Positions 32,397 through 40,608 of a stretch of 64,000 nt of DNA are shown one piece after another. Location of the stretch: positions 280,901 to 344,900 of the forward strand of contig CAWDFL010000003.1 in assembly GCA_963801665.1 (NCBI GenBank), in the 5' to 3' direction. Under the pieces are notes generated by a model. The model was not told where the DNA came from and searched no databases. It saw only the letters and a program-made list of their open reading frames with translations. Position 1 is the first letter of the stretch; each line of letters starts with the position of its first letter. A program made the translations under genes and the position numbers. The DNA comes from an uncultured delta proteobacterium (lineage in GTDB: Bacteria; Desulfobacterota; Binatia; Binatales; Binataceae).

Positions 32397-33272
32397 TTGT
32401 CGATGACGAGTAACCGTAAACGTGCGGTCGCCGCGACGATGGGCGCTGCTGCAGCGCTTGGCCTGACAGTCGATGATGCGATCGTGCTCCAGGAGTCGAA
32501 CAAGCTCGCTGTGCGCCTGCTGCCGTGCGACGTTCTTGCTCGGGTCGCGGAGGAGCGCATCAAGCGCTGGGCGGAGTTCGAAGTCGAGCTTGCTTTACGG
32601 CTCGCTGAAACCGGGGAGCCCCGTAGGAGCGCTCGATCCTCGGGTCGCGCCGGGCGTCTACATGCGTGACGGCTTTGTGGTCACGCTGTGGACCTACTAC
32701 GAACCTGTGCCGTCCCGAGAGTTCGCGCCAGCCGACTACGCGCACGCTCTCGAACGGCTGCATGACTGCATGCGGCAGATCGACTTCCCTACACCGCACT
32801 TTACGGATCGAATGACGGACGCCCAACGGCTTATCGGAAGCCGCGACCAGACTCCAGAGCTAGTTGACGCGGCAGTGAGCTTCTCAGCAACACGTTACGA
32901 AGTCTGCGGCAGGCGATCAGCGCTCGCGGGCGCCGCGAACAACTCCTGCACGGCGAGCCACACCCGGGCAACGTGCTCAGGACGAAGAAGGGCCTGCTGT
33001 TCATAGACCTCGAGACCTGTTGCCGCGGGCCCGTCGAGTTCGATCTCGCCTACGTGCCCGAAGAGGTGAGCGTGCTCTATCGGAGCACCGATCAACAGCT
33101 GCTCCGCGAATGCCGGGTCCTGATGCTTGCGATGGTCGCAGCATGGCGCTGGGATCGAAACGACCAATTCCCCAACGGGCGACAAGCAGCGCGAGAATTC
33201 GTCAGCGAACTCCGGGCGGCACTGTCGGGCGCACCGTTCTCGACGCACTTGCCGCGCTGGACTGACACCTGA
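32397..33272 (+). pseudogene. aminoglycoside/choline-kinase-type phosphotransferase (APH family) with two frameshifts
   Basis: Three consecutive overlapping ORFs in three frames (32397..32669, 32473..33006, 32973..33272). The last carries the ...LLHGEPHPGNVL...LFIDLET... catalytic-loop motif of the APH/protein-kinase-like fold. Confidence 0.55.
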
Positions 33273-33651: not shown

Positions 33652-33727
33652 TGGAGCCACCCGTCGGATTCGAACCGACGACCTGCTGATTACGAATCAG
33701 CTGCTCTACCAACTGAGCTAGGGTGGC
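33652..33727 (-). tRNA. tRNA-Thr (anticodon CGT)
   Basis: 76 nt: GCCACCC-TA-GCTC-AGTTGGTA-GAGC-A-GCTGA-TTCGTAA-TCAGC-AGGTC-GTCGG-TTCGAAT-CCGAC-GGGTGGC-T-CCA. All four stems are Watson-Crick; anticodon loop TTCGTAA; CCA encoded. Confidence 0.85.
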
Positions 33728-33860
33728 CCCGCCGCGATTGCGCGCGCGCCGATAGGACTCGGCTGAATGCCGAGATTAGCGGACCCTCGCGCGCCGGGAA
33801 AGAGAGACCTTGGCGCCGGCGTCTTGAGACTCGGCGGGATCGAGCCGAAGATGAGCCTCG

Positions 33861-34739
33861 ATGGACGGGCTCCCGGGATTTCGCGCTGCGTATCATGAGA
33901 CCTTCGCACGCCTCTACGAGCGTAGCGCCGCCCGGCGCTGGAGAATTCCCGAAGCCGATTTTGCGCAGACGATCGAGCGCGCGATCGAGCGCCAATTTGC
34001 CGGCGCTATCCCGAATCCCGCCGAAATTGAAATTTTCCTCGACTCGCTCCATGTCGAGGACCTTGCGCTCGCAATGGCATGCCGCGCGGGGAACGCCGAG
34101 GCGTGGCGCGAATTCGACGCGCGTTACCACGGCGCGATCGAGAGCTTCGTGCGCGCGATTGCGCGCGATACGGATCGAGCTCGCGAAATTGAAAGCTCCC
34201 TGTACGGCGATCTTTTCGACGTCGCGCGAGTAGGTAATCCGCGCCGCTCCCCGCTCGATTACTATCATGGCCGAAGCTCGCTCGCCGCGTGGTTGCGCAT
34301 CGTGATCGTGCGGCGGGAGGCCGATTGGCTGCGCGAGCGTTACCATGCGAATGCTGCCGCGGCCGCTGCCGCCGAGCCGATAGCGAGTGGCGATCGCAAT
34401 CACTCGGCGCCCGCCGATCCCGATCGCGCGCGGTTTATCCCGATGCTCGCAAAGGCGCTCGACGCCGCGCTTGCCGAGCTCGAGGCGCGCGACCGTCTTC
34501 GTCTCTCTTATTACTACGTGCAAGGTCTCACGCTTGCGGAATCCGGCGTGCTGCTCGGCGAGCATGAATCGTCGGTATCGCGAAACCTTGCGCGAATCCG
34601 CCTCGCGATTCGGCTTAGAGTCGCGCGCGAGCTCAAGCGCGAGCATCATCTGAGCGACGAACAAATCACGCGCTGCTTTGAATTTGGAACCGACGATTGG
34701 CCGTTCGATCTCGGACGGGCGCTTTCGCAGGCAAAGTAA
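33861..34739 (+). CDS. ECF-like sigma-70 family sigma factor
   Basis: Region 2-like (VEDLALAMACRAGNAEAWREFDARYHGAIESFVRAI) and region 4 HTH (LRLSYYYVQGLTLAESGVLLGEHESSVSRNLARIR). Stop overlaps the start of the next gene (TAATG). Confidence 0.7.
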   Translation: MDGLPGFRAAYHETFARLYERSAARRWRIPEADFAQTIERAIERQFAGAIPNPAEIEIFLDSLHVEDLALAMACRAGNAEAWREFDARYHGAIESFVRAIARDTDRAREIESSLYGDLFDVARVGNPRRSPLDYYHGRSSLAAWLRIVIVRREADWLRERYHANAAAAAAAEPIASGDRNHSAPADPDRARFIPMLAKALDAALAELEARDRLRLSYYYVQGLTLAESGVLLGEHESSVSRNLARIRLAIRLRVARELKREHHLSDEQITRCFEFGTDDWPFDLGRALSQAK

Positions 34740-36166
34740 TGGCTAATCCCATAAACGGCGGAGACGGCGAAAATAGCGAAGTGGGAAATGACGCGCTCGA
34801 CGCGCTGACCGCGCGCCACCTGGCCGAAGGGCTTGATGCGTCCGGCCGCGATTGCCCCGACGCCGACGTGCTCGCGACGTTCGCTACCCGCTTGCTGGAT
34901 GCGGACGAATATTCGCGCTGGGAACATCACGCGGCGCAGTGCGTGCTATGCCAACGCAACCTCGCGGCTCTCGCGCGCAGTGGCGTCCTCGACGCTCCCA
35001 AAAGGCCCGCGCTGCCGGCTCTCGCACAAGACGATTCTGACGACGACTCCGAGCTATCGCCCCACGGCGAGGACGAGGGAATCGTCGCCTCGCTTCGCCG
35101 CGGGTTCAGATTCATCGTGGGTCCGTTTCCGCTTTCAGTCGCGATCCACCTCGTTCTGATCATGCTGCTGATCATCACGGTGCACGAGCAGCGTGGACGC
35201 GAATTTATCATGGTCAATCTCGAAGCGGGCGGTGGCGGCGGCGGCAACGAGATGCAGGATCTCGACATGCCTGAAGTGCCGATGCCCGACACCGCGCCGC
35301 AACAGATGGACAATCCGCAAGCGGTCGATACCTCGCAGGCTGTAGGCATGGCCAACGACTATGTGCGCGCGGCCGGCGGCGGCGGAATCGGAATCGGGCG
35401 CGGCGGCGGAATGGGTTCAGGCTACGGCCACGGCATTGGATCGGGCTTCGGCGGATTTATCGGAGAACTTCGGCGCAAGGGTCTGGACGTGGTGCTGGTG
35501 ATCGACGGCACCGGTTCGATGGGTCTGATCATCAACGACGTGAAGGCCAAGATGGGGCAGCTCATCCAGGCGATCCATCGCCTGGTTCCAATCGCGCGCG
35601 TCGGCATTATCGTGTTTGGCGGCAAGGGCGAGAAGATGGAGATCCAGCCGCTCACGCTGTCGCCGCAGAAGCTGACCGACTTCTTAAACGGCATTACCGC
35701 GAAAGGCGGGGGCGAATGGGAAGAAGATACTTTCGGCGCGTGCGAAACCGCGATCGACAAGATGGACTGGAAGCCGTACGCGAAGAAGGTGGTGGTGCTG
35801 GTAGGTGATTCGCCGCCGCGCAAGGAGGATTTCGCGCCGCTGATCGCGATGATCCGCAAGTTCAAGAGCGAGAACGGGACTTTCAACACCGTCGATGTGG
35901 CGGCGGAAGAGCACGAGCGCTTCGAGCGCGAGTTCTGGTTGAAGGTGCATCGCGAGGAGCCGCCGAAAATCACGCCGTTGCCCGAGTTCTATCAGCAGAC
36001 GCGCGCCGCCTATAAGGTGCTCGCCAACGCAGGCGGCGGTGCGATGCGCTCGCTCACGCACGACTCGCATATCAACCAGCAGGTGCTGATCCTCGCCTTC
36101 GGCGAGCAGTGGCAGAACCAGGTCTCCGCCTTCGGCCGGGGGATCAGTTCCGCCAGTGGCCCCTAG
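34739..36166 (+). CDS. anti-sigma factor (zf-HC2) - TM - extracytoplasmic VWA domain protein
   Basis: N-terminal HHAAQCVLCQ zinc motif, TM helix (FPLSVAIHLVLIMLLIITV), Gly-rich linker, VWA/MIDAS (DVVLVIDGTGSM...). The ORF track extends to 34697. Confidence 0.7.
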   Translation: MANPINGGDGENSEVGNDALDALTARHLAEGLDASGRDCPDADVLATFATRLLDADEYSRWEHHAAQCVLCQRNLAALARSGVLDAPKRPALPALAQDDSDDDSELSPHGEDEGIVASLRRGFRFIVGPFPLSVAIHLVLIMLLIITVHEQRGREFIMVNLEAGGGGGGNEMQDLDMPEVPMPDTAPQQMDNPQAVDTSQAVGMANDYVRAAGGGGIGIGRGGGMGSGYGHGIGSGFGGFIGELRRKGLDVVLVIDGTGSMGLIINDVKAKMGQLIQAIHRLVPIARVGIIVFGGKGEKMEIQPLTLSPQKLTDFLNGITAKGGGEWEEDTFGACETAIDKMDWKPYAKKVVVLVGDSPPRKEDFAPLIAMIRKFKSENGTFNTVDVAAEEHERFEREFWLKVHREEPPKITPLPEFYQQTRAAYKVLANAGGGAMRSLTHDSHINQQVLILAFGEQWQNQVSAFGRGISSASGP

Positions 36167-36259
36167 CGCCAAAGAAATTCTGCAAGGAAACCGCCCGCGC
36201 CCGATCTGATCATCAGGAGCATCTGTATAGACGCTCTGGACTCGATCAGGAGGTGCGCG

Positions 36260-37417
36260 ATGAACCCGTACCTGTTCGCATTGATAGCGCTTTGCCTCTC
36301 GATAATCGTCGTCACTGTCGCGATCCGGCGGCTTAGGCGCCGCGAGGATGTCGGAGCGGGCGTGATTGCGAGTGCGGTCCGGTTTGTCGGCGGTCCGTTT
36401 CCGCTTTCGGTCGCGATTCACGTCGGCGCGCTGCTGTTCCTGATTATCACGGTTCACGAAAGCCGCGGACGGGATCTGATCCTGGTCAATCTCGAAGCGG
36501 GCGGTGGCGGAGGCGGTGGCGATGAGATGCAGAAGCTCGACATGCCTGAAGTTCCGATGCCTGACGTCGCGCCGCAGCAAACCGAGCTGCCGCAGACAGA
36601 CGACACGGCGCAGGCCGTCGCGCTCGCGACCGACTACGTACGTTCCGAAGCCGGCGGGATCGGGATAAATCGAGGCGGCGACGGACTTGGCACCGGGCAC
36701 GGCCCGGGCTTCGGTGGCGGATGGGGCGGGTTCATCGGCCATCTTCGCCGCAATGGACTGGACGTCGTGCTGGTGATCGACGGGACCGACTCGATGCGGC
36801 TGGTGATGGCGGACGTCAAGGCGCGGATGAAGGAGCTCGTCCGCGCGATTCAGCGTCTGGTTCCTACGGCGCGGGTTGGAATCGTTGTTTACGGTGGCGA
36901 GGGCGAGCCGCTCGACGTGCAGCCGCTCACGCTATCGCCGGCGAAGCTCGACGCTTTCTTGTCCGCGATCCAGACCAAAGGCGGCGGCGAGTGGGAAGAA
37001 AACACCTACGGCGCGATGCAGGCCGCGGTCGATCGGATGGACTGGAAGCCCTACGCGCGCAAAGTGATCGTGCTGGCCGGCGACGCGCCGCCGAAGCAGG
37101 ACAAGTTCGCGGCGATACTCGAACTCGAGCGCAAATTCCGCGCCGAAAACGGCACCGTCAGCGTCGTCGACCCGACCGCGCAGGAGCATCAGCGCTTCGA
37201 GCACGAGCTCAACATCCGCGTGCATCGCGAGGCCAACTCCGCCGCCGCGCCGATGCCCGCGTTCTATCAGCAGGCGCGCGCCGCCTTCGCCGTCATCGCG
37301 CACACCGGAGGCGGCGAGATGCGCAGTCTCGAAGGCGACGAGGCGATCAATCAGCAGGTGCTAATAATGGCGTTCGGAAGCAAGTGGCAGGAGCAACTCG
37401 CGGCTTACGAAAGATAG
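36260..37417 (+). CDS. TM + VWA domain protein, tandem paralog of the anti-sigma C-terminal region
   Basis: ~75% identical to the downstream gene over the TM-linker-VWA region (FPLSVAIHVGALLFLIITVHE...LEAGGGGGGG...DVVLVIDGTDSM) but lacks the cytoplasmic zinc-finger domain; AGGAGG RBS. Confidence 0.75.
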   Translation: MNPYLFALIALCLSIIVVTVAIRRLRRREDVGAGVIASAVRFVGGPFPLSVAIHVGALLFLIITVHESRGRDLILVNLEAGGGGGGGDEMQKLDMPEVPMPDVAPQQTELPQTDDTAQAVALATDYVRSEAGGIGINRGGDGLGTGHGPGFGGGWGGFIGHLRRNGLDVVLVIDGTDSMRLVMADVKARMKELVRAIQRLVPTARVGIVVYGGEGEPLDVQPLTLSPAKLDAFLSAIQTKGGGEWEENTYGAMQAAVDRMDWKPYARKVIVLAGDAPPKQDKFAAILELERKFRAENGTVSVVDPTAQEHQRFEHELNIRVHREANSAAAPMPAFYQQARAAFAVIAHTGGGEMRSLEGDEAINQQVLIMAFGSKWQEQLAAYER

Positions 37418-37655
37418 GCGCGAGGGTGCCGCACTGGTTGCCGGTCTTGCTCATAGTGCGAAGCGATCGCGCGCTCAGATCGGCAAATTAGAGGGGTGCG
37501 GCGATAGGTCTTCAGCTGCCGTCCAAACCGGAGGGCAACCGCGTGGGCATTGGCCCGTGGAAGTCTCACAATAGACTAGAGGCTGAGTGCTTCGGTTGGT
37601 ATGATAATCGCGATCCAAGGAGTGGTGCTGGGCCGGAAGCAGCCAACGCAGACGA

Positions 37656-38342
37656 ATGTTTCAAAGAGAGTCTGAAATGACTGGGTTCGTGGCGAGCTGG
37701 ATAAAGGCCAATGGCATGACGGCCAAGCCGGAGTTTGTGACACCTTGGGGTATTTGCGATTTCGTCGGACTCCGCTTTAATCCAGAAAAAGTAACACGCC
37801 GCCTCCAACAAAAACAAATGCGGGCGATTAGTTCCGTCACCCGTGCACTTTTGCTGCTTCAAATTCCCGATGTAGAGACGAAACGATCAATCACTCTCGA
37901 CAGCCTCATTCGGAGCTATGCGCCATTTATTTCCGAAGAAGTCGTCTGCAGGGAAACATCTCGCCTGATCGCTGACCGATATGTTACTTCTTCCGCGCAC
38001 CGGCGCTTACAAAAGGTTAACGGCTGGATGCCTCTACAAGACCGGTTGGTCGCTGTTGAACTAAAGCTCTCGCGAGTGGACGAAGCAATGCGTCAAGCGG
38101 TGAATAATCTCGGATTCGCAGACGAGTCGTACGTGGCGTTGCCGGCCGACGTAGCACGGCGTGTCCTGGCGACCTCGACCCGTTGGTCGAAGTTCTTCGA
38201 TGTGGGTGTAGGCTTGTTAAGCGTCGCGCGCCGTGGCTGCGAGGTTCTGCGGCCGGCGCAAAAGACCGGAAACGGGACGGACAAGGCAATTCAACTTTAC
38301 TGCATCGAGAAATTCTGGAGCACCCGTCTTAAAGGCAACTGA
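37656..38342 (+). CDS. hypothetical protein, possible PD-(D/E)XK nuclease fold
   Basis: ~50% GC gene inside the low-GC island. ICDFVG ... LVAVELK spacing resembles the D...(D/E)xK nuclease motif, but this is a weak inference. The real start may be MTGF (~37677). Confidence 0.45.
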   Translation: MFQRESEMTGFVASWIKANGMTAKPEFVTPWGICDFVGLRFNPEKVTRRLQQKQMRAISSVTRALLLLQIPDVETKRSITLDSLIRSYAPFISEEVVCRETSRLIADRYVTSSAHRRLQKVNGWMPLQDRLVAVELKLSRVDEAMRQAVNNLGFADESYVALPADVARRVLATSTRWSKFFDVGVGLLSVARRGCEVLRPAQKTGNGTDKAIQLYCIEKFWSTRLKGN

Positions 38343-39510
38343 GCATCAATGGTTCTGCTACAGCTTCAAGTCTGCGCGCCGTTCCTTCATCAGTGATCTC
38401 TGGAAGCGACTTTCCGAGAGCGTAAGCTGCGGATAGGTCTTGGAAAAGCGCCATCGATCGGCCGGCTTTGGGGGTAATCGCGATGAGATCAATCCATTGT
38501 TTGTAAAACCTAGCGATCTGTTCTCTCGCAGCATCAGGGGCGTTCAGCGCTGTATACTGCCTCTTGATCTCGGTGAATTCTGCGCGCGTCGGATGCGAAG
38601 CGGCAAGCTTCGAGATCGCTGCGTCGAGCCAGACCTTGAATTGGGGCCCAATGCCAACGCGTCGCCTTAGCGAAGGGAGTGCCAGCCTTACTTTTGGCTG
38701 ACGGGCGGGACTCCCGGCCAAAAAGTATTGGTATCCCGAGCCGATGCCGATAGCAGGGTGATCGACCAAGCCCTTCGCCCATAAGACCAAGTTAAGACCC
38801 CAATAGGGCCCGGCGATCCTGATTTTGGACGAAATGCGCTCGTTAAGTTCCTGGTGAAGGTCTATAAGGGCGCCGAAACGCTTTTTGAGCGTCGAGGAAC
38901 CACTGTCGTCCGTGAGACTGCTGTCCACGACCCAAAACCCATCCGCCCCAGCTTCGTGATAACACCGTTCAGCCTGTTTTACTTTCGGGTTCCGCGCCAC
39001 TTTGCCGCTAACCTGGTTTTGGTGCGTGAAAAGTATAGGGAGGATCAGCTTCCCAGAGAATCCGTTGGCGCTTTTCCATCTCCCAGCCGCTGCCGCCAAG
39101 AATCGATTGATCTTATTGCGGCCGGAACCATTCACTACTGGTAGCTGGGGCACAGTTATCCATGCCGGTCTGTATGTAACGCACCTATCCAAAACAGCTT
39201 TCACTAACGCGTTTACTTCCGATGAGAGTGGTATCCCCTGATAGTCACCCGCGCCGATTTTCTCGAAGTTTATGAACGTTCTCATAAAGTCGAACCAACC
39301 ATTCCTCTTGTCCGGTCGGCTCCGTCGGCTCACGAGATCATCCATCCCGTCGATGGCGGGATCTATCCACACCTTAAATGAGTCATCTAGAATGCGCAGA
39401 AAATTAGTCGCCCGATCCAAGGGCACGCGGACCATCTCCGAATCCGGATAGATTTTTCGCGCGAGTCTGCAGGTTTCCTCGCCCGTGACGAAGGGAATGT
39501 ATTCCGCCAT
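38329..39510 (-). CDS. hypothetical 393-aa protein (no family recognised)
   Basis: Long clean ORF at ~52% GC, co-oriented with and 8 nt upstream of the FRG-domain gene. It converges on the previous gene with a 14-nt overlap. Confidence 0.6.
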   Translation of the reverse strand: MAEYIPFVTGEETCRLARKIYPDSEMVRVPLDRATNFLRILDDSFKVWIDPAIDGMDDLVSRRSRPDKRNGWFDFMRTFINFEKIGAGDYQGIPLSSEVNALVKAVLDRCVTYRPAWITVPQLPVVNGSGRNKINRFLAAAAGRWKSANGFSGKLILPILFTHQNQVSGKVARNPKVKQAERCYHEAGADGFWVVDSSLTDDSGSSTLKKRFGALIDLHQELNERISSKIRIAGPYWGLNLVLWAKGLVDHPAIGIGSGYQYFLAGSPARQPKVRLALPSLRRRVGIGPQFKVWLDAAISKLAASHPTRAEFTEIKRQYTALNAPDAAREQIARFYKQWIDLIAITPKAGRSMALFQDLSAAYALGKSLPEITDEGTARRLEAVAEPLMLSCL

Positions 39511-39518
39511 TGTTTACC

Positions 39519-40334
39519 TCATAGTCCTGCCGTCCGACGCACATGAGCGCAGACGTGTTCGGGTTCGGGAAATATGAACATCTCCCCGATGCCGACCCTC
39601 TCCAACTCGTTCAGCAGCGACATCTTGTGCTCACGCAGAATGGGCACGTAGAGAAGAGAACTGGCCTGCTGCCAATCGAGGTCGAACTTACGCGAACCAT
39701 GCAGCGTGAACGCTCCTTGCTGCATAGCAATGCGCTCGTTGTTCCACGTTGGATTGATTGCAATCGTTCGTCGTCCGCGAGTGTGAATTCGACCATCTAG
39801 TTTGAAGTAGTTCTTGATGATGTTCGAGTCCCGTTCCAAGTCGAACACTCGTGGCGATCTCGCGTCGGTACTTTGGTTAAGCTCAATCGGATTGAGGATC
39901 ACCACCAGTCCGTCAACGTCCGGGTATTTGCAACAAGCGAAAAAAAGCGCAACCGCCGCGTTCTGGGTCCAGTCCAATAGCCGGGTGGGGAGCCCATAGT
40001 GCTGAGCAACCTGCATCCATCCTAATTCGTTATCAGGGGCTGGTGGGCGTGATAGCTTCATTTCCAAGAATCGCTTCATGTCGGCAACGAGTCCGAGTGC
40101 TCGGTCCCTTTCCTCGGGTTCGCCATATCGGAGGGCGGACGGGGCAAGCCGATAGGTCAAATCAGGATGCCCGCGAAACCAGAACAAGTTGTTTGGCTCG
40201 AGAAGAGAGTGAAACACGCCGAAAAAATCGCTCAGCGTTAAAATCAAGTCGTCCTTAAATATTGGACAATCGAGCCCGCAATTTCGATAACGATTTGATA
40301 GCTTGCGGCGATCCTGACCGGTTGTGGACGGCAT
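39519..40334 (-). CDS. FRG domain protein
   Basis: 271 aa at ~48% GC; LFWFRGHPDLTYRLAPSALR and GLPTRLLDWTQNAAVALFFA match the conserved FRG-domain core. Confidence 0.7.
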   Translation of the reverse strand: MPSTTGQDRRKLSNRYRNCGLDCPIFKDDLILTLSDFFGVFHSLLEPNNLFWFRGHPDLTYRLAPSALRYGEPEERDRALGLVADMKRFLEMKLSRPPAPDNELGWMQVAQHYGLPTRLLDWTQNAAVALFFACCKYPDVDGLVVILNPIELNQSTDARSPRVFDLERDSNIIKNYFKLDGRIHTRGRRTIAINPTWNNERIAMQQGAFTLHGSRKFDLDWQQASSLLYVPILREHKMSLLNELERVGIGEMFIFPEPEHVCAHVRRTAGL

Positions 40335-40608
40335 ATGAGATCATCCCTATGGTTTGAGTTGGTTTTCTTCACCTGAGTGTTGGCGATTCCGTCGGAATGC
40401 GTCATCTGGGAATGCGTTCTTGAAAACAACCTTTGTAAACTCTTAGTGAGTGGCCGCGAGTTTATGAGGGACAGAGCGACGCGGCAAGCAAAATAGATCG
40501 CTAAGGCTAGTGCTGGGCCGGTCGCGGATCTGCTTACGGCGCCGATCAGTGAAAAATGACGCTACCGTCGGCGCACACTTCGTATTAGCGGCACTCGAGC
40601 GGTGCCAT

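Follow-up and report, generated by a model that had tools for sequence, protein, structure and literature searches.

Pairs of a sigma factor for extracytoplasmic function (ECF) and its anti-sigma factor are among the commonest bacterial signalling devices, and the Ton- and Tol-type 5:2 motors provide the main delivery of energy to the Gram-negative outer envelope. TonB and TolA use an SHLS helix to dock peripherally on the pentamer formed by ExbB or TolQ, the proton-driven dimer of ExbD or TolR pulls on them, and their C-terminal domains hold an outer-envelope partner. In the FecI/FecR/FecA system, an ECF sigma factor is controlled across the envelope and a motor of the TonB-ExbBD type is needed; to our knowledge, this indirect, Fec-type route via an outer-membrane receptor is the sole link between such motors and ECF signalling. 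A further group, the von Willebrand factor A (vWA) force transducers, combines a TolA/TonB-like SHLS helix, a disordered linker containing a motor box, and a C-terminal vWA domain (Mol Biol Evol 2025;42:msaf138, PMC12204202). According to the portions of that description drawn on here, the transducer genes adjoin a tolQ-like and two tolR-like genes, and the function of the family is unknown, with no phenotypes reported; sigma or anti-sigma factors have no occurrence in the paper (PMC12204202). Here we analyze a three-gene unit in a 64,000-nucleotide (nt) stretch of the genome of an uncultured soil delta proteobacterium of the Binatia (Binatales; Binataceae; assembly GCA_963801665.1, contig CAWDFL010000003.1, positions 280,901 to 344,900 of the forward strand; the whole stretch is termed the window), in which an anti-sigma factor, A, is fused to the body of such a transducer. 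We lean towards reading A as a sentinel copy of a motor-coupled transducer, the engagement of which would control the release of the sigma factor. Confidence in this reading is high for its structural and evolutionary parts, and motor-dependent signalling by A is given a little less than an even chance.

The unit consists of three co-directional genes:
33861 to 34739, + strand: ECF-like sigma factor of 292 amino acids (aa), assigned by TIGR02937 and by a profile of its orthologs
34739 to 36166, + strand: anti-sigma factor A fused to a vWA force-transducer body, 475 aa, its start overlapping the sigma stop
36260 to 37417, + strand: paralog C, 385 aa, with a VWA domain by Pfam and no anti-sigma domain

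The stop codon of the sigma gene (TAA, 34737-34739) and the start codon of A (ATG, 34739-34741) overlap as TAATG, and a stop/start overlap of this kind (TAATG or TGATG) ends the gene in 19/19 of the full-length sigma orthologs read. The translation of A is identical to the database protein P0001. A scan of one genome per species, with peptide patterns taken from close relatives, yielded at least 79 Binatia loci; all locus counts are minimum numbers, and divergent copies may have escaped detection. The sigma/anti-sigma layout recurs in 23 other Binatia loci and on ~20 metagenome contigs, which is more than chance. Furthermore, a second paralog is found on the same strand in 16/21 of the A loci having enough downstream sequence, and the three-gene unit is thus real and conserved, in variants, so that the co-occurrence of the triad envisaged in an initial annotation of this DNA extends beyond one genome to other Binatia loci.

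The domains of A are arranged as follows:
34781 to 34981, + strand: predicted cytoplasmic class-I zinc-type anti-sigma domain, residues ~15-81, by its ligands and profile matches
34853, 34928, 34940 and 34949, + strand: putative zinc ligands C39, H64, C68 and C71, respectively, by their invariance
35102 to 35182, + strand: TolA/TonB-like transmembrane (TM) helix FIVGPFPLSVAIHLVLIMLLIITV of the SHLS type, with S133-x3-H137 and L144 (H+7)
35201 to 35245, + strand: post-TM segment resembling a motor box, with a Gly run, EFIMVNLEAGGGGGG, aligning with TolA
35246 to 35485, + strand: periplasmic linker, Pro-rich MPEVPMPDTAPQQ and then Gly-rich GGGGIGIGRGGGMGSGYGHGIGSGFGG, by its conservation
35486 to 36163, + strand: periplasmic vWA domain and C-terminal extension, with a D-x-T-x-S variant (D256 G T G S260) of the metal ion-dependent adhesion site (MIDAS)

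Much of what the initial annotation had read from this locus is borne out, including an ECF-like sigma factor (TIGR02937 above its cut-off) co-translated with the anti-sigma factor through TAATG at 34737-34741, an H-x3-C-x2-C zinc motif in A (H64, C68 and C71, invariant in 28 orthologs), and a single TM helix (~122-148) followed by a poly-Gly run and a VWA/MIDAS domain. The VWA assignment likewise stands, with Pfam hidden Markov models above their gathering scores, and only the length of 476 aa is corrected, the open reading frame (ORF) giving 475 aa. The generic sensor that had been seen in the TM, poly-Gly and VWA regions is replaced by a more specific identity, as by motif and domain content the body of A falls within the TolA/TonB-like vWA "force transducers", a family whose description dates from 2025 (PMC12204202).

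The vWA domain of A is detected by VWA_2 (35.8 against a gathering score of 27) and VWA (27.1 against 23.8), and in both A and C the gathering scores of VWA_2, VWA and VWA_4 are exceeded. The full-length AlphaFold2 (AF2) model was used solely to confirm the vWA fold, and among the Foldseek matches listed from the PDB nearly all are vWA proteins, including integrin I domains, the anthrax toxin receptor, BatB and Rpn10. Pfam gave no TonB_C or TolA_C match at the C-terminus of A, where the domain is vWA, and its MIDAS-like motif reads DVVLVIDGTGS. The helix reads GPFPLSVAIH...L...ITVH, with T147 (H+10) one position off the fourth SHLS site. S133 and H137 are invariant in 28 A orthologs, and S and H form the sole invariant helix columns in 40 diverse family members, which were themselves chosen for an S-x3-H helix; a strict screen, which undercounts, found S-x3-H in 39/81 long family representatives. 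When a profile of the helix and the next 45 residues was searched against all PDB sequences, the top three matches were E. coli TolA chains from TolQRA structures (including 9k49_H and 9ddm_F; E 0.0014), in an alignment which covers the S-x3-H helix and pairs NIEASAGGGGGSS of TolA with IMVNLEAGGGGGG of the family. The EFIMVNLEAGGGGGG segment is invariant in A orthologs.

Searching 5.8 billion proteins recovered full-length anti-sigma orthologs of 450-495 aa, as well as many proteins of ~401 aa which are 82-90% identical to the body of A and in which a short extra helix replaces the anti-sigma domain. The genes for these shorter proteins are located directly after genes for MotA_ExbB, ExbD and ExbD (Pfam) and before one for a secreted 191-aa protein. 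Binatia loci were accordingly classed by tblastn into the types A, B, C and D, which differ in context and in their departure from the canonical D-x-S-x-S MIDAS (DGTGS in A and B, DGTDS in C, DGTKS in D). Type A has the sigma gene immediately upstream in 24/24 loci; type B lies 3′ of exbB-exbD-exbD in 51/51, as the fourth gene and usually followed by ds191, the gene for the 191-aa protein; and in another clade type D lies downstream of A, at a distance of 0.1-8 kb. B was found in at least 17 of the 23 A-bearing genomes, often on the same contig, as in CAVXXK010000001, the A of which is 95% identical to that of the window. Judged by their shared helix and vWA domain, A and C are thus force-transducer family homologs in a different gene context.

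Several features of these loci may be recorded alongside. The ds191 product (~191 aa) has a signal-peptide-like N-terminus and belongs to no Pfam family, and its gene follows B in ~44 loci (L002, 11284-11859); the product could serve the vWA head as a ligand or partner. The leader of the exbB operon, 200-400 nt upstream in ~50 loci (L025, 7900-8250), contains the inverted repeats GGTTCGAGCGGGaCC...CGCCGCTCAAA and CGGTTCAGGGGAGAACCG as well as other blocks. It may constitute an operator or a structured 5′ untranslated region, and no Rfam match was found in the conserved leader. A small ORF located after D (L010, 13513-13908; L012, 15750-16148) resembles by eye a histidine-phosphotransfer (HPt) domain, with the motif AHAIKGS.

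The likeness between A and B far exceeds that between A and its tandem neighbor, the body of A sharing 86-90% identity with B and ~60% with C. Within single genomes the A and B bodies show 88-99.4% protein identity, and their four-fold synonymous identity in six genomes is 0.99 (CAWIHG), 0.92 (CAVRUK and CAWCDG), 0.90, 0.86 and 0.84, against a between-genome baseline of 0.54-0.69. Sliding-window DNA comparison in several genomes showed ~100% identity over ~1 kb, starting at the TM motif and reaching the stop codon, falling to 33-45% in the 5′ part and the 3′ flank. When the bodies are placed in a distance tree, A and B interleave by genome, with C on its own long branch. Such a sharply bounded tract between dissimilar flanks is the signature of gene conversion, and indicates recurrent conversion between A and B which covers exactly the transducer body. 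An assembly artefact was considered as the source of this identity and is unlikely, since both copies are found on one long contig with unique flanks in several genomes, although it is conceivable for polished long-read metagenome-assembled genomes (MAGs). In the genome DATNLS01, ds191 follows A (L022) and a D-type paralog is found ~6 kb downstream of B (L053), a swap of flanks which looks like a reciprocal exchange through the shared body.

Conversion is not the whole of the explanation. In the clade of the window, synonymous identity between A and B is 0.62, corresponding to no recent conversion, and A nevertheless retains 91-100% identity to B in its periplasmic regions (C: 53-81%), while the TM segment is 62% identical overall with its GPFPLSVAIH motif kept. 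A is thus maintained in the likeness of B by purifying selection and not by conversion alone. The linker is near-invariant in 28 orthologs and 94-100% identical to that of paralog B in the nearest genome; it shows more conservation than would a passive spacer.

These patterns bear on a more conventional interpretation, in which A would be a ligand-sensing anti-sigma factor whose vWA domain binds a periplasmic ligand or metal and which is processed by ordinary regulated intramembrane proteolysis, with no motor involved and the helix retained as an inherited anchor. This is the common mechanism of membrane class-I anti-sigma factors, VWA-bearing anti-sigmas exist in group ECF289, no motor genes are present in the window, and relatives of the sigma factor pair with an ordinary BNR-like sensor, as described below. 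An inherited anchor, however, does not readily account for the invariance of the S-x3-H and motor-box/poly-Gly motifs in 28 A orthologs, nor for conversion tracts which begin at the TM motif and therefore include the helix rather than the vWA head alone. GPFPLSVAIH has nevertheless remained identical to B in the window clade, although synonymous sites there are saturated and the TM segment as a whole is only 62% identical. We therefore regard conventional sensing as rather unlikely and retain the reading of A as a sentinel copy of a motor-coupled transducer.

The N-terminus of A is a predicted class-I anti-sigma domain of the zinc type, which would bind the sigma factor. The ligand pattern C39-x24-H64-x3-C68-x2-C71 is invariant in 28 A orthologs, in which the invariant residues of the N-terminal 100 include these four. 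Pfam zf-HC2 matches 9/28 A orthologs at E<=0.1 (best E 2.9e-5), and a profile of the N-terminus searched against the PDB matched the anti-sigma factors DdvA (8rlz; E 5.6e-4) and RslA (3hug; E 0.01). An AF2 model of residues 1-99 comprises four helices, with a predicted local distance difference test (pLDDT) score of 87-90 over residues 40-80; its best Foldseek matches, RslA and ChrR in complex with sigma factors, are not significant (E>1). Redox sensing is not a property of most zinc-type anti-sigma domains, and the extreme conservation of the body and its homogenization with B would be left unexplained if the zinc motif did the sensing, through thiol oxidation or zinc in the manner of RsrA, and the membrane and vWA parts only localized the protein; we consider this highly improbable. 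Such a role is brought to mind by the C-x24-H-x3-C-x2-C spacing, which equals that of the redox-sensitive RsrA (PMC4960319).

The partner gene encodes a sigma factor which scores 46.8 bits with NCBIfam TIGR02937 (sigma70-ECF; cut-off 42.9), its closest specific NCBIfam model being TIGR03001 (Myxococcales family 1; 86 bits, below the cut-off of 154.6). Pfam recovers region 4 only, and this below threshold (Sigma70_r4_2; 24.2 against 25.7 bits); as the protein is divergent from the Pfam models, with neither region 2 nor a full-scoring region 4, we term it "ECF-like". A profile of 19 sigma orthologs matches SigW (5wuq), 6in7/8z6g and RpoE (1or7) with E of 1e-5 to 1e-4, as well as AlgU-type ECF sigmas, in alignments over positions 72-261 which cover sigma2 and sigma4. 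The sigma2-like domain is placed at ~60-158 and sigma4 at ~186-251, and the N-terminal ~60 aa and C-terminal ~35 aa are conserved extensions. Upstream of this gene a further conserved element is found:
33824 to 33853, + strand: promoter-like motif TTGAGA-N18-AAGATG, ending 7 nt before the sigma ATG

It is the single match to TTGAGA-N18-AAGATG in the window, while TTGAGA-N18-[A/C]AG[A/T]AT-N7-ATG precedes the sigma gene in ~20 Binatia loci; elsewhere in the 1.47 Mb of loci the matches are scattered and non-recurring. No Shine-Dalgarno sequence precedes the sigma ATG, which, together with the distance of 7 nt, suggests that the sigma/anti-sigma mRNA is leaderless or near-leaderless.

A metagenome scan with the sigma profile separated two groups of sigma factors. 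Those at least 45% identical to the window protein are followed by an A-type protein, with stop and start always overlapping in the ~20 readable cases, while those 37-44% identical are followed, after a gap of 15-100 nt, by zinc-motif anti-sigmas of 377-622 aa. The periplasmic ends of these distant anti-sigmas contain BNR/Asp-box motifs (BNR/Ycf48-like), with Pfam PSII_BNR and BNR below threshold. As the distant sigma relatives are paired with BNR-like sensors, the transducer body represents an acquired sensor module, and the comparison strongly indicates that a pre-existing cassette of sigma and zinc-type anti-sigma swapped its sensor for a transducer body. An apparent direct fusion of sigma and vWA body, without the anti-sigma domain, TM helix or linker, was also observed (P0131; 529 aa); it may have arisen by deletion, be a pseudogene or reflect misassembly.

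Among the best 150 family clusters at 50% identity, the H-x3-C-x2-C motif is confined to the Binatia cluster, while other clusters have a cytoplasmic FHA domain or zinc ribbon ahead of the S-x3-H helix. Distant members of 600-730 aa with an N-terminal cytoplasmic FHA domain include P0218, P0233, P0244, P0245, P0252, P0264 and P0267, and P0246 is a distant transducer member with a zinc ribbon in place of FHA. The portions of the 2025 family description drawn on here (PMC12204202) make no mention of FHA or zinc-ribbon fusions, which suggest that the fusion of cytoplasmic signalling domains to the vWA transducer recurs.

The same fusions bear on an inside-out or decoy arrangement, where A would compete with B and C for the motor, either with the state of the sigma factor tuning the share of B or with A reporting occupancy, and where the sigma factor would be freed when A is undocked. 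The motor-docking motif is common to A, B and C, several TonB paralogs on one ExbBD complex are established biology, and the FHA-fused members suggest cytoplasmic control of transducers. A pure occupancy sensor would have no need of the vWA head and linker, which are as conserved in A as the helix; we consider this arrangement improbable.

Paralog C, the third gene, is preceded by a short spacer and carries a second hydrophobic helix:
36167 to 36259, + strand: spacer of 93 nt between A and C, with the conserved blocks AAAGAAATTCTGCAAGGAAAC and CGATCTGATCATC and the ribosome-binding site AGGAGGTG
36269 to 36325, + strand: TM1 of C, residues 4-22, a hydrophobic helix
36383 to 36454, + strand: TolA/TonB-like TM2 of C, residues 42-65, with the S-x3-H motif (S50-x3-H54)

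The initial annotation was right in recognizing here a tandem 385-aa paralog without an anti-sigma domain (36260-37417), but its single TM helix is superseded by the two at residues 4-22 and 42-65, and its ~75% identity by 59% in BLASTP, where 75% is the proportion of positives (~64% identity over the body alone). C shares the motor-box/poly-Gly motif and has the MIDAS variant DGTDS; it is faster-evolving, with an altered MIDAS and the docking motif kept. Orthologs of C (81-97% identity) are present in seven other loci, directly after A in L004, L005, L006 and L069 and on short contigs in L068, L070 and L071, and in L074 a more diverged C-like copy follows A. The spacer blocks were drawn from a five-genome alignment, and no terminator-like site was found on the + strand of the spacer. 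C is probably co-transcribed with A, possibly with an internal promoter. It may represent an output of the sigma factor or a partner of A, possibly an inducible alternative transducer, and the co-receptor, decoy or hetero-oligomer partner proposed in the initial annotation is a further possibility.

If A is indeed a sentinel copy, a sequence of events can be proposed. As A is a near-perfect replica of B, it would most likely dock on the ExbB/ExbD proton-driven motor used by B and would most likely bind the same periplasmic or outer-membrane ligand. A would hold the sigma factor at the membrane until its transducer module is engaged, be it through ligand binding, the pull of the motor or displacement from the motor. 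Inactivation of A would follow, probably through regulated proteolysis or a change in conformation, and would free the sigma factor. Candidate release steps include the unfolding of the Gly/Pro-rich linker by force, followed by regulated proteolysis; displacement from the motor; and a ligand-induced conformational change. A more specific version, which we put forward only tentatively and consider somewhat doubtful, is that A is a mechanosensor, in which the pull of the motor on a ligand-held vWA head opens the linker and releases the sigma factor, and the copying of B into A keeps the sensor calibrated. If true, this would constitute force-gated transcription in a bacterium, with a logic like that of Notch.

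A number of results weigh against the coupling of A to a motor or against the assignments on which it is built. No exbB, exbD or ds191 was found by tblastn in the 64-kb window, and among the classed loci no exbB or exbD lies beside any A or C gene; as A and C never adjoin motor genes, coupling rests on the identity with B and the homology to TolA. In ~30 genomes B occurs without a detected A, which makes A accessory. Conversion between A and B can also follow neutrally from their sequence similarity. TonB proper was rejected as the closest relative of the helix region, as its match (9ddo_F) reached only E 6.8, TolA being the significant one. The full-length AF2 model is poor (pLDDT 51), with no beta-strand in the motor-box segment. 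Pfam zf-HC2 does not match the window A protein, and Sigma70_r2 has no match in the sigma factor at E<=1. The sigma-upstream motif does not recur upstream of exbB or of C in the 1.47 Mb of loci and the window; as it recurs before the sigma gene only, no link to a regulon is made through a shared promoter. Finally, all of the relatives are MAGs.

The DNA surrounding the unit includes one further annotated feature:
33652 to 33727, - strand: tRNA-Thr gene, flanking the three-gene unit, which has unrelated genes on its other side

This gene is the only match in an Rfam scan of the window. Just upstream of it, overlapping frame-shifted ORFs on the + strand (32397-33272) resemble fragments of one disrupted gene. 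On the other side, an insertion of ~3.1 kb (37450-40550) with a G+C content of 0.545, against ~0.61, is located between C and genes for a hydrolase and YchF; L004, L006 and L069 lack it at the syntenic site, and L005 has it. It contains ORFs of 228 aa (+ strand) and 393 aa (- strand), for which no family match was found, and one for a 271-aa FRG-domain protein (- strand) which matches the PADLOC candidate defence system PDC-S15 (E 1.2e-45).

Taken together, these findings suggest that gene expression in a soil Binatia bacterium may be wired to a proton-driven envelope motor. If the coupling is true, it would represent a direct route from such a motor, or its mechanical load, to transcription, would provide the uncharacterized vWA-transducer family with a first functional handle in the form of a sigma-dependent reporter, and would offer a clear natural example of a "sentinel paralog". 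Even without coupling, the locus documents the modular replacement of an anti-sigma sensor, from BNR-like to transducer body, and the concerted evolution of a regulator with a component of a machine. In the literature searches made, we found neither an account of an anti-sigma domain on a TolA/TonB-like transducer nor one of its homogenization with a motor-operon paralog. The suggestion in the initial annotation that the architecture is undescribed is consistent with this as regards the fusion; its component parts (ECF-like sigma factor, zinc-type anti-sigma domain and vWA transducer) are of known kinds.

Among described systems, the N-terminal H-x3-C-x2-C of A is shared with DdvA of the DdvS/DdvA pair of Myxococcus xanthus (PMC11506125, PMC6061681), RslA and RsiW. 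DdvA is the best solved-structure match to the N-terminus of A, and the resemblance of the sigma factor to the Myxococcales family TIGR03001 fits the comparison with DdvS/DdvA; DdvA, however, has an extracytoplasmic CHAT protease domain, with neither a TolA-like helix nor a vWA domain. The anti-sigmas of group ECF289 (VWA and DUF3520; Casas-Pastor et al. 2021, PMC7826278) similarly have a VWA domain outside the cytoplasm, and VWA-bearing anti-sigmas are therefore already on record, where the initial annotation had called VWA domains unusual in this role. A stands apart from them in its lack of DUF3520, its TolA-like helix, its motor-operon paralog and its TIGR03001-like sigma factor, and membership of ECF289 was rejected as neither A nor its 28 orthologs gave a DUF3520 match.

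The transducers of the 2025 description share the helix motif, the linker and the vWA domain with the present family, and B is located directly after exbB-exbD-exbD. As far as the portions of that paper drawn on here extend (PMC12204202), A differs in its cytoplasmic zinc-type anti-sigma domain and in adjoining a sigma gene rather than motor genes; furthermore, no tetratricopeptide repeat (TPR) gene is associated here, and the Binatia are absent from the phyla of the paper. With TolA and TonB of E. coli there is a common N-in, single-pass S-x3-H helix, a Pro-rich linker and the position of B after exbB-exbD, and the post-TM segment IEASAGGGGGS of TolA aligns against IMVNLEAGGGGGG. Unlike in these proteins, the C-terminus is vWA rather than TolA_C or TonB_C, an additional N-terminal helix is present in B and C, and A has a cytoplasmic anti-sigma domain of 120 residues. 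In the Fec system, FecR is not TonB-like and the signal passes via a TonB-dependent outer-membrane transducer, whereas no TonB-dependent receptor gene is found in this operon and the anti-sigma factor is a transducer homolog. The anti-sigma factor A would thus itself be a motor-docking transducer copy, kept identical to the transducer by selection and precisely bounded gene conversion.

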